A DNA stretch of 64,000 nt from positions 31,384-95,383 of the forward strand of contig CAYZFX010000005.1 in assembly GCA_964477935.1 (NCBI GenBank), in the 5' to 3' direction. The translations under genes were made by a program, and so were the position numbers. The DNA is from an uncultured Syntrophorhabdus sp. GTDB lineage: Bacteria > Desulfobacterota > BSN033 > UBA1163. This document shows, piece by piece, positions 2,489 to 61,133 of the stretch. A model generated the notes under the pieces. That model was not told the origin of the DNA. It searched no databases and was given only the letters and a program-made list of their open reading frames with translations. Numbering within the stretch: the stretch's first letter is position 1; every line of letters begins with the position of its first letter.

Positions 2489-2966
2489 CGGTTTTACTCT
2501 TCGGGAGAATCCTGATCCTCTTCATCTCTCCATCCCCCAAACTCAACGTTTCGAGGACTGGATCATCCTTTAAGGCGAGATGGACAATTCTTCGATCATG
2601 GGGGTTGTATGGCCCGATATCTATCGATTTCCCACTCCTTTTTACCCTCTCACCAAGACGGAGGGCCATCTTCGTGAGTGAATCGATCCTCCTCGCTTTG
2701 TACCCATTCACATCGATGTAAACTCTCATCTTCTCATCGATTTTTTTGTTAACCATCCTATTGAAAAGGAATTGAAGGGAATCGAGCGTCCGGCCGTGTT
2801 TTCCGATCAGGAGGGACTCCCTACCCCCTTTAAGGTTTAAGAAGAGCCCTTCCTCACCATGGGAGGCCTCCACATCCGCCTCCACACCCATGAAGCCCAG
2901 GAGGTCTTTAATCATCTTTTTGGTTGCATCGATCGATTCTTCTTTCAAAACCTGGCCTCTTACCAT
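2475..2966 (-). CDS. jag: Jag/KhpB (EloR) RNA-binding protein with KH and R3H domains
   Basis: 163 aa, with a KH-like GKHGRTLDSLQFL segment and an R3H-like C-terminus. It lies immediately downstream of yidC, as in most bacteria. Confidence 0.8.
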   Translation of the reverse strand: MVRGQVLKEESIDATKKMIKDLLGFMGVEADVEASHGEEGLFLNLKGGRESLLIGKHGRTLDSLQFLFNRMVNKKIDEKMRVYIDVNGYKARRIDSLTKMALRLGERVKRSGKSIDIGPYNPHDRRIVHLALKDDPVLETLSLGDGEMKRIRILPKSKTVVSD

Positions 2967-4678: not shown

Positions 4679-4702
4679 CGATCTCTCTTTTCTTCCTTCT
4701 TC

Positions 4703-4939
4703 TCAATTGCTCTCGGATTCAACAGGGTCATAGCCTCCGGGATTAAAGGGATGACACCTAATCAGCCTCTTCAGAGTGAGCCATCCCCCATGGATTACCC
4801 CATGGCGTTCGATCGCCTCGATGGCATAGCAGGAACAAGACGGATAAAACCGACAGCTGGGACCGAAGGCCATAGAGAGGGTCTTCTGGTAGGTCTGAAG
4901 CAGTAAGATGAGCATCTCTCTTAGTGCTTTTCCCAACAT
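4703..4939 (-). CDS. yidD: Membrane protein insertion efficiency factor YidD
   Basis: 78 aa with the conserved [19 protein letters not shown] motif. Confidence 0.85.
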
Positions 4940-5277
4940 GATTGAATCAAGACCTCCTTCAGTTCCTCTTCAACCTCTTGGTAGGAGGCGGGCAGACTCC
5001 CCTTTTTCACCAGAATAACCAGATCGAGTGACCCAATGATCAGATGTTTGTTCAGGCGAAAGAATTCCCGGAGGTATCGCTTCATCCGGTTGCGGATGCT
5101 GGCCGGTCCAACCTCTCTCTTTACGACAACGCCCAGCCGATGATAGTCTCTTCGGTTTTCGTGGAGAAAGAGGAGATAGTGTTTGGTTGAAAGCCTCCTG
5201 CCAGATCTCATCACCCTTCGGAAATCCTCGGGAAGGGCAATCCTCTCCTTTCGAGTGAACCTAAACGATCCTTTCAC
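4921..5277 (-). CDS. rnpA: RNase P protein component RnpA (GTG start overlapping the rpmH stop)
   Basis: 118 aa, basic, RnpA-like (FRFTRKERI...[10 protein letters not shown]), positioned between rpmH and yidD. Confidence 0.85.
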
Positions 5278-5412
5278 TAAACGGTTAGCCTCTTCCTGCC
5301 TTTGGCTCTCCTCCGCTTAAGGACTTTTCGGCCACTGCGGGTGGACATCCTCTCCAGGAAGCCGTGAGTCCTTTTCCGTCTGATCGTGCTCGGTTGGTAG
5401 GTTCTCTTCATC
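5277..5412 (-). CDS. rpmH: 50S ribosomal protein L34
   Basis: This gene is below the 60-aa cutoff of the ORF track. Manual reverse-complement translation gives [44 protein letters not shown], a textbook L34 sequence. Confidence 0.85.
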
Positions 5413-5458
5413 TCAATCCTCTTTCGAGACGTGGCTTGTTTTTTGAAATAATTAAACT

Positions 5459-5487
5459 TTTTGAGTAAACCATATTTCTACTCAAAA
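5459..5487. promoter_or_regulatory. Perfect 9-bp inverted repeat TTTTGAGTA-N11-TACTCAAAA in the divergent rpmH/gyrA promoter region
   Basis: Read directly from sequence. A TTGACA (5511-5516) plus an AT-rich -10-like element lies about 25 nt downstream, facing gyrA. Confidence 0.3.
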
Positions 5488-5571
5488 GTCAAGATCAGGG
5501 CGGGTTTCTGTTGACAGGGGGCCTGATTTATATTAAGTTTTTCAACAAAATGGATCCCTTCTGAGGCACCG

Positions 5572-7998
5572 ATGAACGAGTATCAGACTGCCATTCCCAT
5601 CAACATCGAAGACGAGATGAGACGCTCCTACATGGACTATGCCATGAGCGTCATCATCGGCCGGGCCCTTCCTGATGTCCGGGATGGGCTCAAACCGGTT
5701 CATCGCCGGATCCTCTACGCGATGAACGAACTGAACAATGACTGGGATAAACCCTATAAGAAGTCAGCCAGGATCGTCGGCGACGTCATCGGTAAATACC
5801 ATCCCCATGGAGATATGGCTGTCTATGATGCCATCGTCAGGATGGCCCAAGACTTCTCGCTCCGATACCCCCTGATCGACGGCCAGGGGAATTTCGGGTC
5901 GGTTGACGGCGACCCGCCAGCTGCGATGCGATATACCGAAATACGAATGGCGAAATTGGCTTCCGAACTCCTCGCTGACATCGATAAAGAGACGGTCGAT
6001 TTCGTTCCAAATTACGACGAATCGTTGTTGGAACCTTCGGTCCTCCCCTCTAAATTTCCAAACCTCGTTGTGAACGGTTCCTCAGGGATCGCGGTAGGTA
6101 TGGCCACCAACATCCCCCCTCACAATCTCAATGAGGTCATCGAGGGCCTGATCGCCCTCATTGAGAACCCGGAAATTACCCCTGAGGAGTTGATGTCGCA
6201 CATCCCTGGTCCCGACTTCCCAACGGGCGGATTCATCTATGGCCGGGAGGGAATCCGGTCCGCCTACGAAACCGGAAAGGGGGTCATCCAGCTTCGAGCC
6301 AAGGCTTTCATCGAGAGGGACAAGAAAGGAGAGCGGGAGAGCATCATCGTCACCGAACTCCCTTACCAGACCAATAAGGCTAAGCTGATCGAAAGGATCG
6401 CTGAACTCATTCAGGAGAAGGTGATCGAGGGGATTTCTGCCGTTCGGGATGAATCGGACCGGGAGGGGATGCGGGTGGTCATCGAGCTGAAGCGGAATGA
6501 GGTCCCCGAAGTCATCCTGAACCAGCTCTACAAGAATACCCAGATGCAGACCTCCTTCGGGATCATCCTCCTGGCGATCCATCAGAATCAACCCAAGCTC
6601 CTCTCCCTCAAGGAGATGCTCCACCTCTTCCTTCAGCACCGAAAGGAGGTGGTGACCCGGAGGTCTCTCTTTGAGCTGCGAAGGGCAGAGTCCCGGGCCC
6701 ACATCCTCGAAGGCCTCAAGAAAGCCATCGATCAGATCGACGCGGTCATCGCCACGATCAAGGCCTCCAAGACCCCCAAGGAGGCCAAAGAGCGGTTGAT
6801 GGACCGCTTTGAGCTTTCCGAAGAACAGGCCCAGGCCATTCTCGACATGAGGCTTCAGCGGCTCACCAACTTAGAACAACGGAAGATCGTCGAAGAATAT
6901 GAGGAGACGATCAAGTTGATCAATCGCCTTAAGGATATCCTGGCCAGTGAGCGCCTGATGCTCAATGTGATCAAAGAAGAGCTCCTTTCAATTAAAGCCT
7001 CTTACGGGGACCCGAGGCATACGGAGATTGTGGACGTTGCTCCGGAGATCCGGATCGAAGACCTGATCGCTGAAGAGGACATGGTGGTAACAATCACCCA
7101 TTCGGGTTACATCAAGCGAAATCCCATCAGTCTCTATCGGAGTCAGCACCGCGGCGGAAAGGGGAAAGTGGGGATCAACGTCAAGGAGGAGGATTTTGTC
7201 GAAGATCTCTTCATCGCCTCCACCCATGACTACCTCCTCTTCTTCACCGATGCGGGAAAGATCTACTGGAAGAAGGTCCATGAAATTCCTCAGGCGGGCC
7301 GTCTGACCCGCGGGAAGGCCATCGTCAATCTTCTCAATCTCGGCCCGGAGGAGAAGGTGACGACGATCCTCTCCCTCAAGGATTTCTCTCCCGGAAAGTT
7401 TATCACCTTCGTCACGAAAAATGGAAAGATCAAGAAGACCGCCCTCGAGGCTTACAGCAATCCCCGGTCGGGTGGGATCATCGCCCTTGGCCTCGACGAG
7501 GGGGACGAACTCATCTCCACCAAGCTGACCGATGGCGACCGTCACCTCTTCATCGGAACGAAACTTGGAAAGGCCATCCACTTCCCGGAGAATCAGGTGC
7601 GGGAGATGGGCCGGACCGCAAAGGGCATCCGTGGCATTCGCCTGACCCGGGGAGATGAGGTCGTCGCCATGGAGGTCGTCCTTCCCCACACCTCCCTATT
7701 GACGGTCACAGAAAACGGTTATGGGAAACGATCGTTGGCCTCGGAATACCGAATTCAAAACAGGGGAGGCAGTGGTATCTATACAGTGAAGAGGACGAAA
7801 AAGACGGGAGATGTCGTGGGCATCAAGGCCATCATCGATGAGGATGATCTGATGATCATCTCCAACAAAGGGAGGATCATCCGGTTAAGGGCTGCAGATA
7901 TTCCTGTCCAGGGAAGAAACACCCAAGGCGTTCGCCTCATCACCCTCGAAGAATCGGAACGGGTGGTGGCGGTCGCCAGGCTGGCCGAGAAGGATTAA
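5572..7998 (+). CDS. gyrA: DNA gyrase subunit A
   Basis: 808 aa. The N-terminus matches GyrA (…[31 protein letters not shown]…), a GyrA box ([10 protein letters not shown]) is present, and a C-terminal beta-pinwheel follows. Confidence 0.9.
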
Positions 7999-8054
7999 AA
8001 AAGACTTGAATTTTTTTTTAAATAGGGTTAAGTGTATAGAGGTCCGAAAAAAAA

Positions 8055-8120
8055 CATCATCCACATACCAATTCCCCTCTGAGACTTAAAAATCTTTTTT
8101 CCACATTTGTGGAAACATTG
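8055..8120. promoter_or_regulatory. Candidate oriC/dnaA-promoter DnaA-box cluster in the AT-rich gyrA-dnaA spacer
   Basis: TCATCCACA (8057-8065) and TTTTCCACA (8097-8105) each match TTATCCACA at 8 of 9 positions. TGTGGAAAC (8108-8116) is the reverse complement of GTTTCCACA, a 7 of 9 match. Flanking A/T tracts run through 8010-8160. Confidence 0.4.
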
Positions 8121-8204
8121 TGAAAAAAGCTTTATAACCTATTTAAATGTATAGATTTTTTCTTTTTGGGTCTTTCCTGCCCATTTCATAAAGTTCTTCT
8201 CCAT

Positions 8205-9575
8205 ATGCCTGAAACCCTCGCTGTCGAGCTACAAGAAAATCTCTGGACGAAGGTCTCTGCCATTCTCAAAGAGAGAATCGGTTCTCAGAATTTTGACATC
8301 TGGATCAAGCCCCTTCAAATCCGATCGATGGATGGGGAAAGGGTCGAAGTGGAGGTCCCCAATCGCTTCTTCAGGGAATGGATTCAAGAGCACTATTCGG
8401 TTCATATTAAAGAGGCCTTTTCCATCTTGACTCAGAGGTCCTTCTCTCTTCTTTTTCGAATTAAGAATGAATCGGCTTCTTCGGAGAGGGGAAACAGGTT
8501 CCTCGCCCCTTCTGAAAATAGCCTCCCCTCTATCTTCCACCCGCTCAAATCTCCTTTCAATCCGAAATATACCTTTGAAAATTTTGTAGTAGGGGCAAGC
8601 AACCAATTTGCCAATGCGGCCTGCCTCGCTGTGGCCAATTTACCGGCTAAAAACTATAATCCTCTCTTCATCTATGGTGGGGTAGGGCTCGGAAAGACCC
8701 ACCTCCTCCACGCCATCGGAAACCACATTCTTCAGCACCGCATTGTCCCCGATCCGAAGAAGATCTGCTATACCTCAGCAGAGGAGTTCACTAATGAGAT
8801 GATTAATTCCATCCGCTTCGAAAAGATGGAGGAGTTTAGGAATAAGTATCGACGGATGGATATCCTGATGATCGATGATATCCAATTTATTGCCGGGAAA
8901 GAGAGGACCCAGGCTGAATTCTTCCATACCTTTAATTCCCTCTATGAGGCCAGAAAGCAGATCGTTGTCACGAGCGATAAGTTTCCGAAAGACATCCCAA
9001 ACTTTGAGGAACGCCTCCGATCCCGTTTTGAATGGGGACTGATTGCGGATATCCAGCCCCCGGATATCGAAACGAAGGTGGCGATCCTTCGGAAGAAGGC
9101 AGAGATCGAGAGGATCCATCTCCCCAATGATGTGGCCTTCTTTTTGGCCTCTCAGATCGACTCCAATATCCGAATGCTGGAGGGATGCCTCATTCGAATC
9201 GGGGCCTTTGCTTCCCTTTCCAGAACGGAGATCGACCTCCAAATGGCTAAGGAGGTGTTGAAGAATATCATCAAACCCAAAGAGGAGTCGGTCTCCATCG
9301 AGGTCATCCAAAAGGTGGTGGCCCACCATTTCAACTTGAAGATATCCGATTTCAAAGCCAAACGAAAAAATAAGGGGTATGTCTTACCCCGTCAGATAGC
9401 GATCTATCTCACTCGCAAATTGACCAACCTTTCCCTGATCGAAATTGGGGAGAAATTTGGAGGAAAGGACCATTCGACCGTCCTCCATTCTATTAAAAAG
9501 GTGGAGGAGCGGATGGGGAAAGATCCCTCTTTCAAAGAGAAGATCGACCATCTCATAAGTCGAATTCAGTCCTAA
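8205..9575 (+). CDS. dnaA: Chromosomal replication initiator DnaA
   Basis: AAA+ Walker A (GGVGLGKTHLLHA), sensor motifs and a C-terminal DNA-binding domain (…VLPRQIAIYLTRKLTNLSLIEIGEKFGGKDHSTVLHS…). The start was chosen at MPETLAV; the ORF itself extends back to 8166. Confidence 0.9.
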   Translation: MPETLAVELQENLWTKVSAILKERIGSQNFDIWIKPLQIRSMDGERVEVEVPNRFFREWIQEHYSVHIKEAFSILTQRSFSLLFRIKNESASSERGNRFLAPSENSLPSIFHPLKSPFNPKYTFENFVVGASNQFANAACLAVANLPAKNYNPLFIYGGVGLGKTHLLHAIGNHILQHRIVPDPKKICYTSAEEFTNEMINSIRFEKMEEFRNKYRRMDILMIDDIQFIAGKERTQAEFFHTFNSLYEARKQIVVTSDKFPKDIPNFEERLRSRFEWGLIADIQPPDIETKVAILRKKAEIERIHLPNDVAFFLASQIDSNIRMLEGCLIRIGAFASLSRTEIDLQMAKEVLKNIIKPKEESVSIEVIQKVVAHHFNLKISDFKAKRKNKGYVLPRQIAIYLTRKLTNLSLIEIGEKFGGKDHSTVLHSIKKVEERMGKDPSFKEKIDHLISRIQS

Positions 9576-9781
9576 AGATTGTTGAGATCCTGTTGAATAA
9601 AGGAAGGTCGAAATAACAGGGGTTGAACGATCCACTCTTTCATCCTTTTTTTAAAAAGGAGAGGTTGACAAAATCCTTAACAAGATTCACTCATTCTCTA
9701 TCCTTTCTTCATTTCCACAGGAAGAGACGATGAGGATGAAAGAAGAGATTTTTGAAGACGGAGAAGTCAGAGGAGGAAGAT

Positions 9782-13382
<3,601 letters not shown>

Positions 13383-41860: not shown

Positions 41861-43033
41861 TCAAGGAGATTGGTTCGTTCTGGTCAGGACCCCTCGAGCA
41901 AAGCACTGGAAAAGGTCAGGTCCTAAGAAGTCACCAAGGATTTTTGCCCGGTAGCGACATCCGCCCCGGCAGTCTTCGAGCACGTTACAGCGGCACTTCA
42001 ATCGTTCGAGGGGAATGCGAACCATTCGCTCCCAGCAGACCCGAAGCCCTTCGTCGATTGTCCCCACAGGTTCCTCGCTAAAGAGACCGCACTTGGCCAC
42101 TCTCCCATCGGGGAATATGGCACAGAGATGAGCACCGCAGGTCTCCTGATGGACTGCGCTGTGGAGCCCACCCCCAAAGGCATATCTTAAAAGAGGTCCT
42201 CCCTCCTCCGGGGAGACCCAGAGGTCTCGATTCTCCTCCAATCTTCCCGCGAGGCAAGGGACATCCACATTCCATTCCTCGATCTGCTTCGATCGGAGAA
42301 AGGAGGCCAGTTCATCAAGCTCCCCTAAATTATCTCGATGGATCATCGTCGCGATCGAAACTCGAAGATGAGCCTCCTGGAGATAGTCAATGGCTCGAAT
42401 GACCCTCTCGAACGTTCCCTCCCCCCGGAGGGATTCGTGACCCTTCTTCATCCCATCGAGACTGAGTTGAACTTCATGGACCCGAAGCTTCGAGGCATTG
42501 TCGGGATGGATCAGGGTCCCGTTGGATAGCAAGACGGAACGAAAAGGGTAATCCTTTAACACCTCGTTGATCCTCCAGAAATCGGGATGGAGCAGGGGTT
42601 CCCCTCCAGAGAGGAGGAGCCTCAACCCCTGGATCTCCTCAAATTCCTCAAGGACTTTCACGATCCTCCCGAGAGAAAGGTCCTGACAGAGGCCCTCCCC
42701 GAGATAGCAGTGGCGACAGCCGAGGTTGCATCGATCGGTGATCAGGAGCTCGAGGTATCGTAGAGAAGGGATGGGAGAGGGGTTCAACCGGAACGCTCTC
42801 GAGAACGGAGTGTCTGAAAGGGAGACGAGATTTTCAGAAAGACAATATTGGAGAAACGCCTCCTCTTCATTCACGGCCAGGGGTTCCCCTCGCAGTGATT
42901 TCAGAAGGAACTGAAACGCCTCTTCTCCCAACTCGTACAGTTGGTCGTTTTCGATGTCATAGAGATAGGGCTGTTCAAGCCTCTTGAGCGAGCAGTGGGG
43001 AGAGAGGACCAAAAATTTATTTTCGAAGGACAT
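41861..43033 (-). CDS. Radical SAM / SPASM-domain peptide-modifying enzyme
   Basis: 390 aa with a CNLGCRHC (Cx3Cx2C) motif and a C-terminal SPASM Cys cluster (C…CGLF…C…CRC…CRGGCRYR). Confidence 0.8.
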   Translation of the reverse strand: MSFENKFLVLSPHCSLKRLEQPYLYDIENDQLYELGEEAFQFLLKSLRGEPLAVNEEEAFLQYCLSENLVSLSDTPFSRAFRLNPSPIPSLRYLELLITDRCNLGCRHCYLGEGLCQDLSLGRIVKVLEEFEEIQGLRLLLSGGEPLLHPDFWRINEVLKDYPFRSVLLSNGTLIHPDNASKLRVHEVQLSLDGMKKGHESLRGEGTFERVIRAIDYLQEAHLRVSIATMIHRDNLGELDELASFLRSKQIEEWNVDVPCLAGRLEENRDLWVSPEEGGPLLRYAFGGGLHSAVHQETCGAHLCAIFPDGRVAKCGLFSEEPVGTIDEGLRVCWERMVRIPLERLKCRCNVLEDCRGGCRYRAKILGDFLGPDLFQCFARGVLTRTNQSP

Positions 43034-43229
43034 CTTCGACCACTTCCGGGGTGAGGACCCCTTTCTCGAGAAGCGCTTTTAAAATCTTAAAGGCGCCACA
43101 CTCAAGATCTTTCTCCGATTCCTTGTAGAAATCACAATGGGAGCAGATGAGCCGGATGAGCGCTTCTTTCTCCATCTCCTTCGCCTCTCTTTTCAGGAAG
43201 GTCCCTTTTTCCTTCTGCTCCAAACTCAT
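43017..43229 (-). CDS. Small 70-aa Cys-containing protein, translationally coupled between the DUF3365 gene and the rSAM/SPASM gene; candidate substrate or partner
   Basis: MSLEQKEKGTFLKREAKEMEKEALIRLICSHCDFYKESEKDLECGAFKILKALLEKGVLTPEVVEDVLRK. Three Cys are flanked by Asp/Glu after a ~28-aa charged N-terminal segment. An ATGA overlap joins it to the upstream gene, and it overlaps the rSAM start by 17 nt. Confidence 0.4.
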   Translation of the reverse strand: MSLEQKEKGTFLKREAKEMEKEALIRLICSHCDFYKESEKDLECGAFKILKALLEKGVLTPEVVEDVLRK

Positions 43230-43987
43230 CTTTTCTGTTTGGAGAGATCGATTTTCACGCTGATGGCCCCCCGAAGATCCCCGACGAGGAACCCTGTCGC
43301 CCGATCCTCCGGATACTTCTCTTTTAAGATCGCCAGGACCTCGGATGGGATATTCTCCTTGGGACCATGGCAGGTGAGGCAGAGCGGAGCCAGCGTGAGG
43401 GGCTTGAGATATCGAAAGTATTTGACCCCGCCCTCTTCCACGACTTCGAAGATCTCTTCGGGCAACCTCTTCTCACGATTCAGTCGGTCCAGTTCCTGAA
43501 GCCTCCGGGTTTCATAAGCGTCGGGAATGTTTTTGGGATTCCGATATCGCAAGCTGACCCGGCGGACCGTATGACCGGTCTGGGTTGAAAACCGGTTCGT
43601 CATCTCCTGCGCCCATTCGGAACAGACCCGAACCGCACCCGTAAAACCACCCTTTTGGATCTCCTGCATCAGGAGTCCCCGAACCGTATCCATCAACTCA
43701 TTTGAGATCCTTCTGGCCTCGGGGAGTTCTTTCTCGGAGGGAGTTTTCGGGTTGGATGGATTTACGGCTTGGGCATCCCGAACCGCCTCCCGGGCCACCG
43801 AGATGGGTTCTTTCGGACCGTGATCCTCATGCCGGACATAATAAATTCGTTCTCCAACAATCTGAACCAGGGGTTGATAGCCTGGGGTGGGGGTTCGCAT
43901 CCTGATGGATTCATTCTCCTGGATGGGAAAAGGTAACCAGGGAAAAAGAAGCGAAAGGACCATCGTCGCTCGAAACCAACCTTTCAT
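43226..43987 (-). CDS. DUF3365 (Tll0287-like) secreted c-type heme protein
   Basis: 253 aa with an N-terminal signal peptide and a CLTCHG (CxxCH) heme-binding motif near the C-terminus. Confidence 0.6.
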   Translation of the reverse strand: MKGWFRATMVLSLLFPWLPFPIQENESIRMRTPTPGYQPLVQIVGERIYYVRHEDHGPKEPISVAREAVRDAQAVNPSNPKTPSEKELPEARRISNELMDTVRGLLMQEIQKGGFTGAVRVCSEWAQEMTNRFSTQTGHTVRRVSLRYRNPKNIPDAYETRRLQELDRLNREKRLPEEIFEVVEEGGVKYFRYLKPLTLAPLCLTCHGPKENIPSEVLAILKEKYPEDRATGFLVGDLRGAISVKIDLSKQKR

Positions 43988-53276: not shown

Positions 53277-53296
53277 ACCTCTGGCCTGGCCCTTTT

Positions 53297-53670
53297 GTGT
53301 GTCCACTCCTATTGGGTCGCACTCATGATGTTCGGCCTGGGTCAGAACCGGCCATTAAAGAAATCGCCAAACGACTCCAGGAGAAGACAGGATGGAAACA
53401 CTTCGGGGTGGACCATAGGGCCATGGGGGTAGTAAAGATTACAACAGGAAACATGCAAAGGCAAGGGCTGATGGGGTGGTAAAAGAGCTTATGACTAAAT
53501 ACAAGATCTCTCTCAACAGACTTAAGGCCTACGGTGTGGGTTCCCTGGCTCCGGTAGCCCCCATAAAACAGAGGACGGCCGTGCCAAGAGCAGGCGTGTG
53601 GAGCTGGGGGAGCAAAAACCTCCCTGCCCTAAGCGCCTTATCCCAGATATCCCCTCTCTCGGACCGGTGA
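53297..53670 (+). pseudogene. Decayed, multiply frameshifted remnant of an OmpA/MotB-like C-terminal peptidoglycan-binding domain
   Basis: Three frames carry consecutive OmpA_C-like pieces: …PAIKEIAKRLQEKTGWKHFGVDHRAMG…, …ISLNRLKAYGVGSLAPVAPIKQRT…, …GRAKSRRVELGE…. Compare the consensus LS..RA.aV..yL…G.GE..P…GRA.NRRVE. There is no intact ORF and no N-terminal domain. Confidence 0.35.
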
Positions 53671-53724
53671 AGGGCCGGGAGGGAATCTCCCTCCGGCTAA
53701 GCAGAATGGTCTCACGGAGGATTG

Positions 53725-54891
53725 CTAAGTCCATATTCCCACGATCGGATACCCGCAGAACCGGCACCTTCCATTTCTGACCTCATTGGCAGAAACAGAA
53801 AAGTGGGTTCGATGGATGATCTTTTTCTTACACCTCGGGCAGAAGGTGGAGTTCATCTCATGGCCCGGGACGTTTCCGATATAGACATATTCCAATCCCT
53901 CCTCCTTGGCAATCCTGTAAGCCCGTTCCAGAGTCTCCAAAGGGGTGGGCGGAAGATGGGTCAGTTTATAATTCGGGAAAAACCGATTAAAGTGGAGGGG
54001 GACGTCCTTACCGAGGCTGTTTCTTATCCAGTGGCACATTCTCTTGAGATCCGAAGGGTCGTCATTCAATGTGGGAATGACGAGGTTGACGATTTCGAGG
54101 TGTCTGCCGGAGGATCGGACCGTTTTGAGGGTATGAAGCACGGGTTCAAGCTCTGAGGAGGAGATATCCCCGTAAAACTTTTCGTTAAAGGCTTTCAGGT
54201 CTATTGTGACGGCATCCATATGTTTGAGGAGATCGAGTAGGGGTTCTGAACGGATGGAGCCATTGGTATGGTAAAGGGTTTTTAGCCCCCTCCCCTTGGC
54301 TATTTTGACAATATCAAACATAAACTCATAAAAGACCGTGGGTTCCGAATAGGTAAAAGAGACCGTGGCGCAGCGATATTCAATGGCTTTTCGAACGATC
54401 TCCTCGGGTGTCATCATTAAAAAAGGGATCTCCTCCATACTTTTCTGAGAGAGATGCCAGTTATGACAGAATTTGCAGCGGAAATTACAGCTGGCCGTGG
54501 CCGTGCACAAGATCTGGGTGCCCGGGATCATGTGGAAAGAGGGCTCTTTCTCAATGGGATCGATCTGGAGGGCCGCCGCTTTTCCATAGACGATGCTGTA
54601 TAGGGTGCCGTTCATGTTCTCCCGGTTTCTACAGAATCCCCTTTTCCCCTGGGGGATTTCACACCCCCTGAAGCAGAGGTGGCATTGCACCCTTCCCTGG
54701 GAGAGCTTCTTGTAATACCGGGCCTCCTGGAGAATCTCTGCCCTTTTTTGACCATAGACACGAGGGGATAAAAACAGAAGAGGGAGGAAACCCCCGACCA
54801 GACACCTCCTCCCGATCTCCTTAAGGAATTGCCGACGGTTGACTCCCACCATCCTGGATTTAAGTTTAGAGGGAGACATCCCCTTTGTCAA
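53725..54891 (-). CDS. AmmeMemoRadiSam-system-type radical SAM enzyme (PflA-like) with an N-terminal twin-arginine (Tat) signal peptide
   Basis: CNFRCKFC (Cx3Cx2C) motif preceded by …VQCHLCFRGCEI…GFC…, characteristic of the family. The N-terminus reads …NRRQFLKEIGRRCLVGGFLPLLFLSPRVYG (RRxFLK Tat consensus, hydrophobic core, then a VYG-Q site). Possible starts are TTG at 54891 or ATG at 54879 or 54852. Confidence 0.75.
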   Translation of the reverse strand: MTKGMSPSKLKSRMVGVNRRQFLKEIGRRCLVGGFLPLLFLSPRVYGQKRAEILQEARYYKKLSQGRVQCHLCFRGCEIPQGKRGFCRNRENMNGTLYSIVYGKAAALQIDPIEKEPSFHMIPGTQILCTATASCNFRCKFCHNWHLSQKSMEEIPFLMMTPEEIVRKAIEYRCATVSFTYSEPTVFYEFMFDIVKIAKGRGLKTLYHTNGSIRSEPLLDLLKHMDAVTIDLKAFNEKFYGDISSSELEPVLHTLKTVRSSGRHLEIVNLVIPTLNDDPSDLKRMCHWIRNSLGKDVPLHFNRFFPNYKLTHLPPTPLETLERAYRIAKEEGLEYVYIGNVPGHEMNSTFCPRCKKKIIHRTHFSVSANEVRNGRCRFCGYPIVGIWT

Positions 54892-55080: not shown

Positions 55081-55638
55081 ATGACCCTTATCCTCATTCT
55101 CCTCCTTCTCGCAGGTTGTGCCGTTGTGGGGGTAGCGATTTATAATAAACTCGTCCGGCTCAGAAATACCGTGAAGTCTTCGTGGTCCGACATCGATGTC
55201 CAGTGTAAAAAGCGATTCGACCTCGTTCCCCATCTCGTGGAGACGGTGAGAGGCTATGCCTCCCATGAAAAGGCCGTCTTTGAGAAGGTTACGCAGGCGA
55301 GGACGATGGCCATGCAGGCAAACGCACCAGCAGAGATGGCCAAAGCAGAAAATATGATCCGGGATACACTCAAAAGCCTGTTTGCCGTTGCAGAGGCTTA
55401 CCCCGAACTTAAGGCCAATGCCAATTTCCTGCAGCTCCAGAGCCAGTTGCAAGAACTGGAGAACAATATCGAATACGCCCGGCGGTATTACAATGCGGTC
55501 GTTCGAGACTTCAACATCCTGATCGAATCGTTCCCTTCAAACCTCATTGCCTCCGCCTTCCATTTTAAACAGGCCGAGCTCTTCCAGCTTGAGACGCCTG
55601 AAGCCGAAAGGAGACCGGTGAAGGTGAGCTTCTCCTAA
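55081..55638 (+). CDS. lemA: LemA-family protein
   Basis: 185 aa with an N-terminal TM segment and a LemA helical domain (…YNKLVRLRNTVKSSWSDIDVQCKKRFDLVP…). Confidence 0.85.
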   Translation: MTLILILLLLAGCAVVGVAIYNKLVRLRNTVKSSWSDIDVQCKKRFDLVPHLVETVRGYASHEKAVFEKVTQARTMAMQANAPAEMAKAENMIRDTLKSLFAVAEAYPELKANANFLQLQSQLQELENNIEYARRYYNAVVRDFNILIESFPSNLIASAFHFKQAELFQLETPEAERRPVKVSFS

Positions 55639-57637: not shown

Positions 57638-58603
57638 ATGCGAGGTTATCTCGGGATTGACGTTGGTTCTGTGAGTACGAAACTGGCTGTTCTGGATCAA
57701 GAAGGCAAGGTCGTTGCCCAACGTTACCTTCTCACCCATGGACAGCCCATCCAAGCCGTGCAGAAGGGATTGAAAGAACTCTCTTCTTCCCTTCCAAAAA
57801 CACTCGAGATCCGAGGGGTAGGAACGACTGGAAGCGCCCGTCGGTTAACGGGCCTTCTGGTGGGGGCTGACGTGGTCAGGAATGAAATCACCGCCCATGC
57901 CCTGGCCGCTGTCCATTTCTTTCCGGATGTGAGAACCGTGATCGAGATCGGTGGGCAGGATTCGAAGATCATCATCATCAGGGATGGACTTGTCGTCGAC
58001 TTCGGGATGAATACGGTCTGCGCGGCGGGGACGGGTTCTTTTCTCGATCAACAGGCACTACGGTTGGGCATTCCCATTGAGACGTTTGGGGAGCATGCGC
58101 TCCGGTCCGAATCTCCGGTCCGTGTGGCGGGAAGGTGCACGGTTTTTGCGGAATCGGATATGGTGCACAAGCAGCAATTAGGATGCTCGATCCCGGATAT
58201 CGTCGCCGGCCTTTGCGAGGCCCTGGTCCGAAACTATCTCAATAATGTAGCTAAAGGGAAGGAGATCCAGAGACCGATCCTGTTCCAGGGAGGGGTGGCT
58301 GCCAACTCGGGGATCAAGCGGGCCCTTGAAAGGGAGCTGAAGGCGGAGATCGAGGTTCCCCCTTTCTATTCTGTCATGGGAGCGATCGGGTCGGCCCTTT
58401 TGGCCAGAGAGAAGATGGACGGTTCAACGCCTTCTCGTTTTAAAGGCTTCGGAATTGTGGAAGTCCCTTGTCGCACCCGGAACTTCATTTGCAAGGATTG
58501 TGAGAATGCCTGCGAGGTGGTGGAATTTATGGTCGAAGAAAAAACCGTTTCCTACTGGAGTGACCGGTGCGGGAAATGGGAATCACAGGCCAAGAAACTT
58601 TAG
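57638..58603 (+). CDS. BadF/BadG/BcrA/BcrD-type ATPase (2-hydroxyacyl-CoA dehydratase activator, HgdC-like) with a C-terminal Cys-rich extension
   Basis: 321 aa with an actin-fold N-terminus (LGIDVGSVSTKLAV), CAAGTGSF, and a tail …CRTRNFICKDCENACEV…. Confidence 0.8.
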   Translation: MRGYLGIDVGSVSTKLAVLDQEGKVVAQRYLLTHGQPIQAVQKGLKELSSSLPKTLEIRGVGTTGSARRLTGLLVGADVVRNEITAHALAAVHFFPDVRTVIEIGGQDSKIIIIRDGLVVDFGMNTVCAAGTGSFLDQQALRLGIPIETFGEHALRSESPVRVAGRCTVFAESDMVHKQQLGCSIPDIVAGLCEALVRNYLNNVAKGKEIQRPILFQGGVAANSGIKRALERELKAEIEVPPFYSVMGAIGSALLAREKMDGSTPSRFKGFGIVEVPCRTRNFICKDCENACEVVEFMVEEKTVSYWSDRCGKWESQAKKL

Positions 58604-58693
58604 ATGAATCTGCCAACCGCAGGGAGGAAGCCCGGAATGGAGGTTTTAGATTGGGTCGAAAGGAGAAGCGCATTGGGAGGCTTTTTTTGACCG

Positions 58694-58960
58694 ATGAAGC
58701 TTACCATTCCTCATCTTGGCCCTTTCAATATCTTTCTACGCCCCATGTCGAGAAAGGTCGGCCCGGCATTTATCTTTCTCCCGATGAACAGCCCTAAGAT
58801 TTTCCTTTTAGAAGCGCCATACACTCCTGAAGCGACTTGCCTTCCGTTCAAGGTTATCCTTCGAAATTTTATCGAAGGCCGGCGGGACAGAGTCGATACG
58901 TTTGCCATAACTATGGGTCATGGTCCCTGCCGGTTAGGGAGGTCCGATGTGGTCAGCTAA
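58694..58960 (+). pseudogene. Truncated, decayed paralog fragment of the N-terminal part of the DUF2229 genes
   Basis: …TIPHLGPFNIFL…PEATCLPFKVILRNFIEG…TMGHGPCRLGRSDV aligns with the 60051 gene (…TTPYLGTLHMAY…PEFACFPFKVTLGSMIEA…IGGWGPCRFGYYDV) but lacks the intervening segment and the rest of the protein. Confidence 0.4.
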
Positions 58961-59079
58961 CCGATCTTCAGGGATCTCGGATTTCGGTTCGACCGGATTG
59001 CCATGGAGGAGACGCGGATTAGGCAAGACGATGTCCTCCGTTTTAAACGGAAGGGATAGAAAGCAAATCGGAGGAGGTC

Positions 59080-60054
59080 GTGACCAAGATTGGAATTCCC
59101 CGAGGGCTTCTCTTCTACCGGTATTTTCCTCTCTGGGAGACATTTTTTGAAGCCTTGGGAATGGAGGTGGTCGTCTCCCAGCCTACGACCGAGGCCACCA
59201 TCCGGGAGGGAGCCCGATGGGTGCCGGCCGATCTCTGTCTCCCCGTTAAGATCTTTTTTGGCCATATCAGCTCACTCCGGAAGCGTGTTGATTTTCTCTT
59301 TATTCCTCGCTTTATCAGCGTTGAACCCGATGCCTATATGTGCCCGAAACTCATCGGCCTGCCGGATATGGTCCTCTGCACGATGGGACCTCTTCCCCCT
59401 TTGATCGACTTTCCTATACACTGCAAGGCCAGAGGGGGGGAGGCAGAAAAGGCTTTCTTCCTCCAGGCAGGAGGGATCTTTACTCGAGACAGGGAGAGGA
59501 TAGAAAAAAGTTATGCCTCGGGGTCCGAAAGGCAATCCCGTTTCCGGATGCTCCTCCATAAGGGCCTCTCCTTCGAAGAAGCCCTTCATCGGAGTAAGCT
59601 GCCCATTCTTCCGGAGGTGCGGGAAGAGGATGAACAAGAGAAGATCGGAATCATTGGAAGGCCTTATTATGTTCACGATCCTCTTCTCAGACAATCGGTA
59701 GCTGAACAGGTGGAAACACGAGGATATCGTCTTCTGACCTCTGAGGGGGTGACCGACCAGAATATAGAGAAAGGCCTTGAGAAGCTTCGGAAACGAATCT
59801 ACTGGTCTTACGGAAAGGAGATGGTGGGAGCAGCGATCCATTTTGCCCAGAGCGGATCGGTCCAGGGAATCCTCAGCATCGCTTCCTTTGGGTGTGGCCA
59901 GGATTCCTTTAATTTCGAGTTAATTCGACACTATGTCAAAAATAAGATCCCTATCCTCTCGCTTGTCTTCGATGAACACCTCTCCCACGTTGGCTTCTCG
60001 ACAAGGGTTGAGGCCTTTCTCGAGATGGTTCTGCGAAGGAATAATCGAACATGA
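59080..60054 (+). CDS. DUF2229-like (acyl-CoA dehydratase activase-related) protein, subunit 1
   Basis: 324 aa. The N-terminus (…RGLLFYRYFPLWETFFEALGMEVVVS…ADLCLPVKIFFGHI…) is paralogous to the next gene. Confidence 0.6.
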   Translation: MTKIGIPRGLLFYRYFPLWETFFEALGMEVVVSQPTTEATIREGARWVPADLCLPVKIFFGHISSLRKRVDFLFIPRFISVEPDAYMCPKLIGLPDMVLCTMGPLPPLIDFPIHCKARGGEAEKAFFLQAGGIFTRDRERIEKSYASGSERQSRFRMLLHKGLSFEEALHRSKLPILPEVREEDEQEKIGIIGRPYYVHDPLLRQSVAEQVETRGYRLLTSEGVTDQNIEKGLEKLRKRIYWSYGKEMVGAAIHFAQSGSVQGILSIASFGCGQDSFNFELIRHYVKNKIPILSLVFDEHLSHVGFSTRVEAFLEMVLRRNNRT

Positions 60055-61133
60055 AAATGACGACCCCTTATCTGGGAACGCTTCACATGGCCTATGGCCC
60101 TGTGCTGAAAAGGGCGGGGGTCGAGATCATCTATCCGCCTAAACCGTCGAAGAAGACGCTCGATCTGGGGACAAAGTATGCCCCAGAATTTGCCTGCTTC
60201 CCATTTAAGGTCACCCTCGGAAGCATGATCGAGGCCCTGGAATTGGGAGCGGACACGATCTTTATGATCGGAGGATGGGGACCCTGCCGGTTCGGCTATT
60301 ATGATGTCATTCAGGAACAGATTTTGAGGGAGCTGGGATATTCCTTTAAGATGGGAAGCGCCAATAATCCAGATGCCCTCAGGGACATGATCGATCTGAT
60401 GCAGAGAATCTCTGGCTCACGGTCGAGATTACGTCTCTACCACATCTTCTTCTCCATTCTGATCCGGTTATCCCTTTTGGATTGGGTGCTGAAGACCTAT
60501 TTCCACACCAAACCATTTGAACTGGTCTCAGGGGAGGCAGATCGGATATTAGAGAAGGGCCTCACCTTGATGGAAAATAGCCCTTCCCTGCCCCAACTCT
60601 TCAAATCGGTCTCCCTCATCTCTTACTGGTTCCGGAGGATGAAGAAGAAAAAAGGGATCCACCCTCTCCGGGTGGCGATCGTCGGGGAGCTCTTCACGGT
60701 TCTGGACTCTTCGGCCAACATGGAGATCGATCGATGGTTGGCCCGGAGAGGAATTGAAGTGATCAAATCTGTCTGGTTGAGCGACTATGCGAATGACCGT
60801 TTCCGGTTTAAACCCTTCCGGAGAAACCAGTTTAAATTTTCATCCAAATATGCTCGACCCTATCTTCGGTTTCACGCGGGGGGAGAGAGTATCGAATCGG
60901 TAGGGAAGACGGTTTACTATGCGAAGACCGGTATCGATGGAGTGATCCATCTCTTCCCCTTCACCTGCATGCCCGAGTTGGTGGCCCAGACCATTTTAAC
61001 CAAGGTTCAGAGGGACCTTGATCTTCCCATCCTGACTTTGGTCATCGATGAGCATACGGCATTCGGAGGCATGGAGACCCGTCTGGAGGCTTTCGTTGAT
61101 CTTCTTGAGAGAAGGAGGAGGAAGCGTCTGTGA
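60051..61133 (+). CDS. DUF2229-like (acyl-CoA dehydratase activase-related) protein, subunit 2
   Basis: 360 aa, paralogous to the previous gene, with an ATGA start/stop overlap. C-terminal region: …IHLFPFTCMPELVAQ…. Confidence 0.6.
   Translation: MKMTTPYLGTLHMAYGPVLKRAGVEIIYPPKPSKKTLDLGTKYAPEFACFPFKVTLGSMIEALELGADTIFMIGGWGPCRFGYYDVIQEQILRELGYSFKMGSANNPDALRDMIDLMQRISGSRSRLRLYHIFFSILIRLSLLDWVLKTYFHTKPFELVSGEADRILEKGLTLMENSPSLPQLFKSVSLISYWFRRMKKKKGIHPLRVAIVGELFTVLDSSANMEIDRWLARRGIEVIKSVWLSDYANDRFRFKPFRRNQFKFSSKYARPYLRFHAGGESIESVGKTVYYAKTGIDGVIHLFPFTCMPELVAQTILTKVQRDLDLPILTLVIDEHTAFGGMETRLEAFVDLLERRRRKRL

Follow-up and report, generated by a model that had tools for sequence, protein, structure and literature searches.

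The radical SAM gene and its flanks

The window, which is the whole 64 kb stretch of DNA analyzed here, carries on its reverse strand an uninterrupted open reading frame at 53725-54891, made up of 388 codons and a TAG stop codon, for a radical SAM enzyme. The probable coding sequence is shorter (53725..54852, reverse strand; stop TAG at 53725-53727): its start is likely the ATG at 54852, giving a 375-aa product that begins MVGVNRRQFLK, and the maximal open reading frame extends up to a TTG at 54891. Ahead of the ATG we identified a putative sigma-70-like promoter, TTGACA-17 nt-TAAACT (54863..54891, reverse strand), with 10 of 12 matches in a consensus scan. The layout TTGACA-N17-TAAACT/TACATT-N10/11-ATGG also occurs in the relative loci L001, L003 and L004 (a four-genome comparison); in L001, a 1-nt indel shifts the TTGACA-N17 stretch out of the frame of the gene, and the DNA 5' of the ATG is non-coding there. 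Because this element is conserved and out of frame in L001, we prefer ATG 54852 and reject TTG 54891 as the start, despite a GAGGA located 6 nt upstream of it; on this comparison, the annotated TTG is the -35 box of the conserved candidate promoter. The latter ends 10 nt before the ATG, which implies that the mRNA would be leaderless or nearly so. The 388-aa product had no match in an exact-sequence look-up, and the database copy (P0001) is 384 aa long with another start codon. A 144-aa open reading frame on the forward strand inside the gene (53722-54156) was taken as a shadow ORF; similar antisense frames recur at other loci (cluster C4).

Downstream of the gene, 448 nt (53277-53724) contain no intact gene. 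The first-pass annotation of this DNA had placed an OmpA-domain pseudogene in this flank. The non-coding gap does hold a frameshifted OmpA-C-like remnant in three reading frames (53333..53624, forward strand), which is not part of the system described below, but support for calling it a pseudogene is weak, because joining the pieces gives a peptide with 17.4 bits on Pfam OmpA (PF00691), below the cut-off of 27.2. We also considered the gap as a conserved element or RNA and rejected this, as it gave no alignment with L001 or L004 and no Rfam match at E<=1. On the other side lies lemA (55081-55638; PF04011, 196.7 bits), in agreement with the earlier reading, and the flanking genes comprise lemA, DUF2207, a 2-thiouracil desulfurase/DUF1722 gene and a CrtC-like lipocalin. 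LemA and DUF2207 were discarded as functional partners: their adjacency is seen only in L001 and L004 and is absent in L002, L003, L005 and L009, which indicates local synteny.

Family membership, motifs and fold

The protein matches NCBIfam TIGR04337 (AmmeMemoRadiSam radical SAM enzyme) with 354.1 bits (E 6.6e-106; cut-off 220), which bears out the family identity proposed in the first-pass annotation. Residues are numbered here along the maximal open reading frame (388 codons from TTG 54891) unless the 375-aa product is named. The match covers residues 57-387, corresponding to profile positions 1-333 of 349, leaving the first ~56 residues uncovered by the family model; a Pfam Radical_SAM match falls at residues 132-279.

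The N-terminal cysteine motif CX2CX3C...C (C70, C73, C77 and C87; VQCHLCFRGCEI...GFC; 54631..54684, reverse strand) is invariant in 40 sequences, is also found in signal-less family members and probably forms an auxiliary metal or cluster site. The radical SAM cluster motif CNFRCKFC (C135, C139 and C142; 54466..54489, reverse strand), equally invariant in these sequences, aligns to the CX3CX2C motif of PFL-AE and is followed by the clade signature HNWHLSQ. Both the Cys-rich N-domain and the Cx3Cx2C motif reported previously are thus present. YSE183P, H208-TNG and D231-LK (54193..54345, reverse strand) align residue by residue to the GGE, DTNG and DLK motifs of PFL-AE (3c8f), which we take to be SAM-binding; E183-P184, H208/N210/G211 and D231-L-K233 are invariant or nearly so across the 40 sequences. 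At the C-terminus, CPRC...CRFC (CX2C-X21-CX2C; C351, C354, C376 and C379; 53755..53841, reverse strand) has cysteines that are invariant in the same set, and the motif resembles a zinc ribbon or rubredoxin.

The AlphaFold2 model has a mean pLDDT of 85, with a confident core at residues 55-388 (1-15 and 37-50 are of low confidence). The closest fold is that of PFL-AE (PDB 3c8f/3cb8; Foldseek TM 0.79-0.80 on target), which is also the best solved relative by sequence (E 2e-9) and shares the CX3CX2C, GGE-like, TNG and DLK motifs. The two proteins differ in that identity is 21%, the window protein has extra N- and C-terminal Cys domains and an export signal, and its score on the PFL-AE model TIGR02493 (71.4 bits) is below the cut-off of 231.75; unlike the situation for glycyl-radical enzyme activases, no glycyl-radical enzyme gene occurs near the gene. 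The window gene is a TIGR04337-type radical SAM enzyme with intact catalytic motifs.

The N-terminal export signal

The N-terminus reads ...VGVNRRQFLKEIGRRCLVGGFLPLLFLSPRVYG, with QKR following the predicted cleavage point. A signal peptide is predicted at M14-G47 (MVGVNRRQFLKEIGRRCLVGGFLPLLFLSPRVYG; 54751..54852, reverse strand), with cleavage before Q48. It comprises a twin-arginine motif, N18-R-R-Q-F-L-K24 (54820..54840, reverse strand; residues 5-11 of the 375-aa product), an h-region at C30-P43 (CLVGGFLPLLFLSP; 54763..54804, reverse strand) with 14 uncharged residues and a mean Kyte-Doolittle value of 1.89, and a c-region that follows as P-R-V-Y-G, then Q, and contains a basic residue. 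R19 is conserved in at least 90% of the 40-sequence homologue alignment. Within the 24-member subclade of the window protein, small residues occupy -3/-1 in 24 of 24 members, K or R appears in nearly every c-region (read off the sequences), and a Cys and a Trp (CLRWG...) are kept within the h-region. Among homologues of many phyla, at 52-85% identity, the RR motif and the hydrophobic stretch are kept, and conservation on this scale is, in our judgment, not chance.

A twin-arginine-type signal had been claimed for this protein; it is present, lies in the translated region and is conserved in homologues. Its description as a canonical, textbook Tat signal holds for the RRQFLK motif, the h-region and the -3/-1 residues but is overstated, because the scores on TIGR01409 (12.3 bits over residues 17-37; cut-off 16.7) and PF10518 (12.4 bits; cut-off 22.7) are below the curated thresholds, and a charged stretch, EIGRR, intervenes between the RR motif and the h-region. 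Clade relatives do exceed the TIGR01409 cut-off (P0026, 16.9 bits; P0035, 22.2 bits; P0056, 18.9 bits). Neither a tatA nor a tatC gene came to light in the 64 kb window, which was covered by a simple motif scan for TatA.

The signal might be an annotation artefact: if translation began 3' of the RR motif, the product would be a conventional AmmeMemoRadiSam enzyme of the cytoplasm, with its partners encoded at another site in the genome. In favor of this, the maximal-ORF start at TTG 54891 is indeed wrong, and canonical members start ~15 residues before the first Cys motif. However, all plausible start codons, ATG 54852 included, lie 5' of the RR motif, and reading the sequence reveals no ATG, GTG or TTG between that motif and the conserved core. 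The conserved promoter sets the transcript start just 5' of ATG 54852, and the RR region is conserved at the protein level across phyla, against a non-coding 5' stretch in L001. These comparisons leave the artefact very improbable and, in our view, effectively refuted.

A membrane anchor had also been raised as an alternative to a cleavable signal. The cleavable signal fits better, because only 14 uncharged residues are available, a conserved basic residue comes next and the -3/-1 positions are small throughout the subclade.

A signal-bearing clade across bacterial phyla

The extension is shared by homologues, as the alignment proposed in the first-pass annotation makes clear. Most of the best 120 protein matches carry [ST]RRxF[LF]K followed by a hydrophobic stretch, and RRxFL signals occur in 54 of 78 genomic relatives from many phyla. 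A lipobox (GLASC, GLVSC or LGGC) with a Pro/Thr-rich tether of 30-60 aa is found in 16 of these 54 loci, mostly in Anaerolineae and other Chloroflexota. A further 17 of the 78 relatives, about a fifth of the clade, have a Sec-like, strongly hydrophobic N-terminus; in 16 of them the N-terminal side carries the higher net positive charge, which predicts a catalytic domain on the outside.

In a neighbour-joining tree, the clade containing the window protein has 155 leaves, 142 of them with a signal; among the other 102 leaves, 80 have none. The clade is marked by the signatures C[HQ]NWH[LI]SQ and SFTY[SN]EP[TI], represented in the window protein by CHNWHLSQ and SFTYSEPT, whereas the commonest forms after the cluster motif in signal-less members are CQNWDISK and CQNWEISQ. 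The proposed signal-bearing system is found in at least 571 species-level genomes, from Thermodesulfobacteriota, Chloroflexota, Omnitrophota, WOR-3, Cloacimonadota, Spirochaetota, Nitrospirota and other phyla. The predicted signal is therefore not peculiar to the window gene and marks a large clade in many phyla. Inside this clade we also found fusions of a signal and a beta-propeller, or of a signal and CBM_11, to the radical SAM domain; elsewhere in the TIGR04337 family, one protein combines a single TM segment, FMN_bind and the radical SAM domain, with no further TM segment.

Partner genes in relatives and in the window

The canonical AmmeMemoRadiSam partners are an AMMECR1-like protein A and a Memo-like protein B. 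As the first-pass annotation had noted, homologues of these are absent from the neighborhood: with the L013 Memo and AMMECR1 domains as queries, phmmer found none in the six-frame translation of the 64 kb window, nor did a Pfam scan of ten unassigned window ORFs. The +-10 kb around the genes of L001 and L002, both close relatives, likewise contain none, but a few relatives in the clade do adjoin Memo/AMMECR1 genes.

The usual neighbor in the clade is instead a membrane protein of ~770 aa (about 750-860 aa), in which a TM bundle, a spermidine-synthase-like Spermine_synth domain (PF01564) and a second TM bundle follow one another; hydropathy scans count 5-7 TM segments ahead of the soluble domain, a range that would allow this domain on either side of the membrane. 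Of the 53 informative loci, defined by a downstream stretch of 2.5 kb or more, 42 encode the protein, 37 of them immediately next to the radical SAM gene, and independent gene calls agree. The gene neighborhoods thus indicate that the usual partner of the clade is this protein, not AMMECR1 or Memo. An HMM built from 46 of its sequences (cluster C1) found no copy in the six-frame window, and it is absent near the closest relatives, L001-L005 and L009. Nothing in the window points to a substrate, because the usual partner genes of the clade are absent there.

Additional partners found in some relatives look exported. The Memo-AMMECR1 fusions of L013 and L070 carry their own lipoprotein and Sec-type signals, L066 encodes a Memo-radical SAM fusion with a Sec signal, and nitroreductase-like neighbors in some operons bear Tat, Sec or lipoprotein signals. 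CcdA/DsbD_2-like membrane proteins occur at 5 loci. A fuller operon, as in L021 and L058, comprises a nitroreductase-like gene, the radical SAM gene, the membrane SpeE-like gene and a second radical SAM gene. The lipoboxes with their tethers, the signal-bearing partners, the CcdA-like proteins and the fusions to beta-propeller, CBM_11 or FMN_bind domains may be read as independent signs of an extracytoplasmic location.

These observations bear on the proposal that the N-terminus serves as a membrane tether or has a regulatory role, with a degenerate or repurposed RR motif and a catalytic domain that stays in the cytoplasm without being translocated. The sub-threshold Tat HMM scores agree with it, as does the conserved Cys/Trp pair in the subclade h-region, which suggests constraints beyond targeting; a cytoplasmic site would accord with all known radical SAM biochemistry, and NapH-like fusions in which an odd number of TM segments follows FMN_bind (P0133) may have a cytoplasmic radical SAM domain. 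Against it, 14 uncharged residues are too few to anchor a protein stably in the membrane, an N-in, C-out orientation is predicted from the basic N-terminal region and the -3/-1 cleavage pattern is conserved; lipoboxes with Pro/Thr tethers make sense only outside the membrane, and the partners and fused domains of relatives (CBM_11, beta-propeller, FMN_bind) are of exported types. We regard a tethered cytoplasmic enzyme as rather unlikely.

Proposed mechanism

The reading we favor, with a confidence somewhat above even, is that the window gene encodes a Tat-exported enzyme whose signal is cleavable and which stands alone within a clade of exported radical SAM enzymes. Transcription would start at the gene's own sigma-70-like promoter, and translation at ATG 54852. 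The protein would fold in the cytoplasm, where a [4Fe-4S] cluster would be inserted at C135/C139/C142 and other metal sites would probably be filled as well, and the NRRQFLK motif, the weakly hydrophobic 14-residue h-region and the basic c-region ending in V-Y-G would direct it to the Tat translocase. The folded protein would then cross the membrane, signal peptidase I would cleave before Q48, and the enzyme would act in the periplasm or on the outer face of the membrane.

Transport by Tat, cleavage and catalysis outside the cytoplasm are the predicted parts of this scheme. Radical SAM chemistry relies on an oxygen-labile [4Fe-4S] cluster, on SAM and on a donor of low-potential electrons; as far as is known, SAM and the usual reductants (flavodoxin and ferredoxin) are cytoplasmic. 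Electrons could come from periplasmic low-potential carriers here and from CcdA-like, FMN-binding or nitroreductase-like modules in relatives; SAM could be bound before export or reach the enzyme by another supply route. We know of no radical SAM enzyme shown to work outside the cytoplasm, and our literature search found no paper on periplasmic, exported or secreted radical SAM enzymes or on Tat signals on such enzymes, and nothing relevant on AmmeMemoRadiSam.

Some observations count against export. One is the window signal itself, with its scores below the TIGR01409 and PF10518 cut-offs and EIGRR between RR and the h-region; another is the occurrence of Sec-like, non-RR signals in about a fifth of the clade. 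The latter are puzzling because Sec translocates unfolded proteins and we know of no Fe-S assembly machinery beyond the cytoplasm; either these members stay unexported or something else is at work. The cytoplasmic location of SAM and its usual reductants, the failure to see tatA or tatC in the window and the absence there of the usual partner genes also weigh against export.

A different solution to the supply of SAM and electrons would be that the signal works but the radical chemistry is completed in the cytoplasm before export: the enzyme would be loaded inside and would modify itself or a bound partner. Variants include a signal-less Tat 'hitchhiker' partner or a single last turnover outside with pre-bound SAM. 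This would remove the need for SAM and reductant outside the cell; Tat moves folded, cofactor-loaded proteins and complexes, and the closest solved relative, PFL-AE, is a protein-modifying activase. However, the Memo-AMMECR1 and nitroreductase-like partners of relatives have their own Sec or lipoprotein signals and so are not hitchhikers, the CcdA-like and FMN_bind modules suggest a continuing outward electron supply, and no signal-less partner candidate is encoded next to the window gene. We consider chemistry confined to the stage before export quite improbable.

Returning to an enzyme active outside the cytoplasm, we further propose, tentatively and with a confidence somewhat short of even, that a widespread system performs SAM-dependent radical chemistry there and that the window gene is its stand-alone offshoot. 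Such a system would include a radical SAM enzyme that leaves the cytoplasm through Tat, or in some phyla along a Sec-like route, and that is in certain cases anchored to lipid; alongside it would work a 12-14-TM membrane protein whose embedded spermidine-synthase-like domain would bind SAM or decarboxylated SAM. Some lineages would add exported Memo/AMMECR1, flavoproteins resembling nitroreductases and electron conduits of the CcdA-like or FMN-binding type.

Significance and comparison with known systems

To our knowledge, radical SAM enzymes are treated as strictly cytoplasmic. Because hundreds of relatives in many bacterial phyla bear export signals, our findings suggest that chemistry normally confined to the cytoplasm may also proceed beyond it. 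Should the export prove real, radical SAM chemistry would occur in the cell envelope of anaerobes, and SAM or a SAM-loaded enzyme, together with low-potential electrons, must get to the periplasm. Through the spermidine-synthase-like membrane partner, the nitroreductase-like flavoprotein and the modules of CcdA-like and FMN-binding type, the analysis also offers new handles on the AMMECR1/Memo/radical SAM trio. With regard to the window, it provides a corrected start codon, a candidate promoter and a view of the gene as a stand-alone member.

For the putatively exported clade, we found no description in the literature. The window enzyme shares the three Cys motifs and the core length of the canonical AmmeMemoRadiSam enzyme, which is without the 34-56 residue export signal of the window protein (~105 of the 150 best family representatives start directly at the core). 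The canonical system is further distinguished by its association with AMMECR1/Memo, neither of which was found in the 64 kb window.

Tat-exported Fe-S proteins, such as Rieske proteins, hydrogenase small subunits and NrfC/HybA-type ferredoxins, resemble the window protein as Fe-S passengers folded before transport and in having an RRxFLK-type motif, a weakly hydrophobic h-region and a basic c-region. These proteins are electron carriers and need no diffusible cytoplasmic co-substrate such as SAM. We know of no radical SAM enzyme that is an established Tat substrate.

Flavinylated electron-transfer modules offer another comparison. Meheust et al. 2021 (PMC8238504) describe FMN_bind as an extracytosolic domain and treat FMN_bind, NapH-like (PF12801) and DsbD-like modules as paths by which electrons get to redox enzymes beyond the cytosol; that paper makes no mention of radical SAM, AMMECR1 or S-adenosylmethionine. 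None of these modules lies near the window gene, whereas other family members are fused or adjacent to FMN_bind, Fer4_5/NapH-like or DsbD_2 domains. The fusions with NapH-like and DsbD_2 domains fall mostly outside the clade of the window protein and are ambiguous as to the side of the membrane on which the radical SAM domain lies, and we treat them as supporting hints only.

Radical SAM gene and family assignment

The first-pass annotation had described an orphan AmmeMemoRadiSam-type radical SAM (rSAM) enzyme, and the gene it observed is real: an uninterrupted maximal reading frame of 388 codons on the minus strand (53725-54891, TAG stop), whose product scores 354.1 bits against NCBIfam TIGR04337 (“AmmeMemoRadiSam system radical SAM enzyme”; cut-off 220). 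By homology, the window protein is a TIGR04337 member. Residues 57-387 cover positions 1-333 of the 349 in the family model, so about 56 N-terminal residues lie outside it, and Pfam Radical_SAM corresponds to residues 132-279. The Cys motifs named in the annotation are all present; C70/C73/C77/C87, C135/C139/C142 and C351/C354/C376/C379 are invariant in a 40-sequence alignment.

An AlphaFold2 model (mean pLDDT 85) is confident in the core and falls below 50 at residues 1-15 and 37-50. Its best solved fold match is pyruvate formate-lyase activating enzyme (PFL-AE; TM 0.79-0.80 on the target, 21% identity), and no closer solved structure was found by sequence. YSEP, HTNG and DLK of the window protein align residue for residue with GGE, DTNG and DLK of PFL-AE, which we take to be SAM contacts. 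Identity as a glycyl-radical activase was rejected (71 bits against a cut-off of 232). Linkage to AMMECR1 and Memo is the defining context of the canonical TIGR04337 system; in contrast, and in agreement with the annotation, no Memo or AMMECR1 homologue was found anywhere in the 64-kb window.

Start codon and promoter

The annotated TTG start at 54891 coincides with the first base of a TTGACA -35 box. Within 54850-54891 (minus strand), a 17-nt spacer separates this box from TAAACT (54868-54863), ATG 54852 comes another 10 nt on, and the promoter site has 10/12 matches in a consensus scan. The TTGACA-N17-TAAACT/TACATT-N10/11-ATGG arrangement is kept in three of the nearest relatives (L001, L003 and L004) despite diverged flanking DNA. 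In L001, a 1-nt indel breaks the frame between the stretch and the gene, and an in-frame stop is present, which argues that TTGACA to TAAACT is promoter and not coding sequence. The product most likely starts at ATG 54852 (MVGVNRRQFLK, 375 aa), with which homologue starts agree (MVKVNRREF, MGVSRREF, MNGTNRRDF); the ATG lies only 10 nt past the -10 box, implying a leaderless or nearly leaderless mRNA. A mis-called start, with the true one downstream of the RR motif, is effectively excluded because every candidate start codon lies 5' of that motif.

The N-terminal signal

The signal runs N18-R-R-Q-F-L-K24, EIGRR, CLVGGFLPLLFLSP, R-V-Y-G and then Q48. Its h-region, CLVGGFLPLLFLSP, comprises 14 uncharged residues (Kyte-Doolittle mean 1.89), and the c-region has a basic residue, with V and G at -3/-1. 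The small-residue rule at these positions holds in 24/24 sequences of the protein's own subclade (SHA, SRG, ACG, SCG, VYG, ASG), read just before the conserved mature N-terminus with a one-residue register shift allowed in some rows; nearly all 24, read by eye, have K or R a few residues upstream. The annotation called this a textbook twin-arginine signal. The RR motif, h-region and V-Y-G/Q48 junction stand, but the N-terminus stays below the cut-off of both TIGR01409 (12.3 against 16.7 bits) and PF10518 (12.4 against 22.7 bits), and the signal is therefore better termed Tat-like. Several relatives pass the TIGR01409 cut-off; the sub-threshold scores of the window's own signal are a remaining problem for export.

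Part of the evidence fits a tether role, in which the N-terminus would hold the enzyme at the membrane on its cytoplasmic face; at 14 residues, the h-region falls short of the length of a stable membrane anchor. The alternative we prefer is that the window gene would encode a Tat-targeted, probably cleaved, stand-alone member of a signal-bearing clade, and we give actual Tat export of this protein slightly better than even chances. Overall, the rSAM family, the RR signal and the absence of AMMECR1 and Memo survive from the first-pass reading, while the “textbook” label and the TTG start do not.

Export signals across relatives

Most of the best 120 protein matches (55-85% identity) carry [ST]RRxF[LF]K followed by a hydrophobic stretch. 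In a scan that took one genome per species, relatives with C[HQ]NWH[LI]SQ or SFTY[SN]EP[TI] appeared at no fewer than 571 loci. The best 80 of these at least 571 loci, all from MAGs, come from Thermodesulfobacteriota, Anaerolineae/Chloroflexota, Omnitrophota, WOR-3, Cloacimonadota, Spirochaetota, Nitrospirota, Clostridia, Elusimicrobia, Bacteroidales and others. An RRxFL motif with a moderately hydrophobic stretch occurs in 54 of the 78 scorable loci; in 16 of these 54, mostly from Anaerolineae and other Chloroflexota, a lipobox (GLASC, GLVSC or LGGC) and a Pro/Thr-rich linker of 30-60 aa are present as well. Another 17 of the 78 have a very hydrophobic N-terminus without RR; their mean net charge is +3.6 on its N-terminal side versus +0.2 on its C-terminal side, the former being more positive in 16/17, and the catalytic domain is therefore predicted to lie outside.

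Of the best 150 representatives of clusters at 50% identity, about 105 are canonical (330-350 aa) and start directly at the core, and about 45 have RR or hydrophobic N-termini. A neighbour-joining tree of 257 core domains places the window protein within a 23-leaf RR subclade nested in a 155-leaf clade. The annotation had allowed for homologues without the extension; it is common to this clade, with signals on 142 of the 155 leaves and several of the 13 exceptions clearly truncated, whereas 80 of the 102 leaves outside have none.

Between signal and core, a motif [ST]x[AG][TS]P[KG] (TGATPK, TQATPK, SSATPS) recurs in members with non-RR hydrophobic signals (N-termini of L022, L034, L052, L057, L063, L065, L067, L069 and L070; also proteins P0046, P0055, P0085, P0088, P0095 and P0105). 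In L070, the Memo-AMMECR1 partner repeats this motif (TQATPKK) behind a signal of its own. It could be a processing or sorting motif. Separately, a distantly related, different rSAM protein of 356 aa (L050:12807-13877), encoded downstream of a spermidine-synthase-like gene, has its own RR signal and a lipobox-like NTGC, so radical SAM proteins outside TIGR04337 may bear export signals too.

Partner genes and fusions

When all neighbours were clustered, the dominant neighbour of signal-bearing rSAM genes was a membrane protein of ~750-860 aa (typically ~770), in which central Spermine_synth (PF01564) lies between N- and C-terminal TM bundles, and which also matches NCBIfam PRK03612 and “fused MFS/spermidine synthase”. 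Of the 53 loci with 2.5 kb or more downstream, 42 have it (e.g., L021:6263-8569 and L085:9144-11456, within L006-L086). In 37 it is directly adjacent, and in many cases it overlaps the rSAM gene on the same strand; independent database gene calls confirm the pattern. An HMM search found no such partner in the window, nor was one found beside the nearest relatives. Two or three paralogous rSAM genes per operon are frequent, each with its own RR signal.

Memo-AMMECR1 fusions adjoin the rSAM gene at L013:1306-3270 (lipoprotein signal) and L070:2674-4218 (Sec-type signal); L066:7160-9112 is a Memo-radical SAM fusion with a Sec signal, and P0136 joins a Sec or lipoprotein signal to Memo, AMMECR1 and rSAM. 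Since such a signal precedes each, these AmmeMemoRadiSam variants look exported. Six of the retrieved loci have nitroreductase-like genes close by, immediately 5' of rSAM in L021 and L025, with Tat-like or Sec-like signals on the proteins of L021, L025, L059, L068 and L069; in the Poribacteria contigs L083 and L084, a nitroreductase-like protein with a lipoprotein-type signal is directly downstream. CcdA/DsbD_2-like membrane proteins occur in five loci.

Fusions in the window's clade combine a signal and rSAM with a beta-propeller or CBM_11, and those elsewhere in the family include FMN_bind + NapH-like Fer4_5 + rSAM and DsbD_2 + rSAM (together P0143, P0133, P0141, P0147, P0126, P0127, P0123 and P0128). 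In P0143, a single N-terminal TM segment precedes FMN_bind and rSAM, with no further TM. The recognised routes by which extracytosolic enzymes receive electrons are FMN_bind, NapH-like and DsbD modules (PMC8238504); radical SAM enzymes are nowhere mentioned in that paper.

Site of the chemistry

The most economical reading places the activity of the signal-bearing clade on the outer face of the cytoplasmic membrane. To our knowledge, no route is known that would bring SAM or the usual reductants into the periplasm. Non-RR members pose a further problem, as they would need to cross unfolded through Sec and acquire their Fe-S cluster outside, for which we know of no machinery. Part of the evidence would also fit if the chemistry came before export, limited to a single turnover or carried out with a partner that hitchhikes. 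From the AMMECR1-dioxygenase-radical SAM neighbourhood, an early analysis inferred RNA base modification as a possible activity of AMMECR1 (PMC2034487); the exported-looking forms seen here do not easily fit an RNA substrate.

Our literature search turned up no description of a radical SAM enzyme that is exported or periplasmic, and the few papers that name AmmeMemoRadiSam do so once each, in passing. Taken by itself, the window instance is a modest gene that stands alone. The clade to which it points, however, is widespread and apparently undescribed, and it calls into question an assumption about where radical SAM chemistry takes place.

Genomic neighbourhood

Upstream and divergent from the rSAM gene are lemA (PF04011, 196.7 bits), as annotated, and a DUF2207 gene; a 2-thiouracil-desulfurase/DUF1722 gene and a CrtC-like lipocalin gene lie on the other side. 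Only L001 and L004 (80% identical orthologues) share this arrangement, and L002, L003, L005 and L009 do not, which indicates recent synteny and not a functional cluster. Downstream, a 448-nt gap without an intact gene (53277-53724) shows no conservation in relatives, and nothing in Rfam matches it. The OmpA-domain pseudogene reported there is visible as an OmpA-C-like remnant in three frames with at least two frameshifts (53333-53624, plus strand), but the joined peptide reaches 17.4 bits on PF00691, below the cut-off of 27.2; the equivalent gap of L001 or L004 has no such remnant.

We take a 144-aa ORF antisense inside the rSAM gene (53722-54156, plus strand), with similar antisense ORFs in five other loci (neighbour-gene cluster C4), to be no gene of its own but a shadow ORF that reflects the conserved coding strand. 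A second, unrelated radical SAM protein (41861-43033, minus strand; 390 aa, PF04055 81.6 bits) is adjoined by a Tll0287-like gene (43226-43987). The region 1073-13382 looks like a replication origin by gene order and N-terminal sequences, with mnmE, jag, yidC and rnpA on the minus strand and gyrA-like, dnaA-like (8166-9575), dnaN-like and gyrB-like genes on the plus strand, named from reading translations only. Finally, a gene trio at 57638-61133 (plus strand), unrelated to the rSAM finding, is syntenic with L004:4274-7353, and the N-terminus of its first ORF resembles, by eye only, BcrAD/BadFG-type ATPases.
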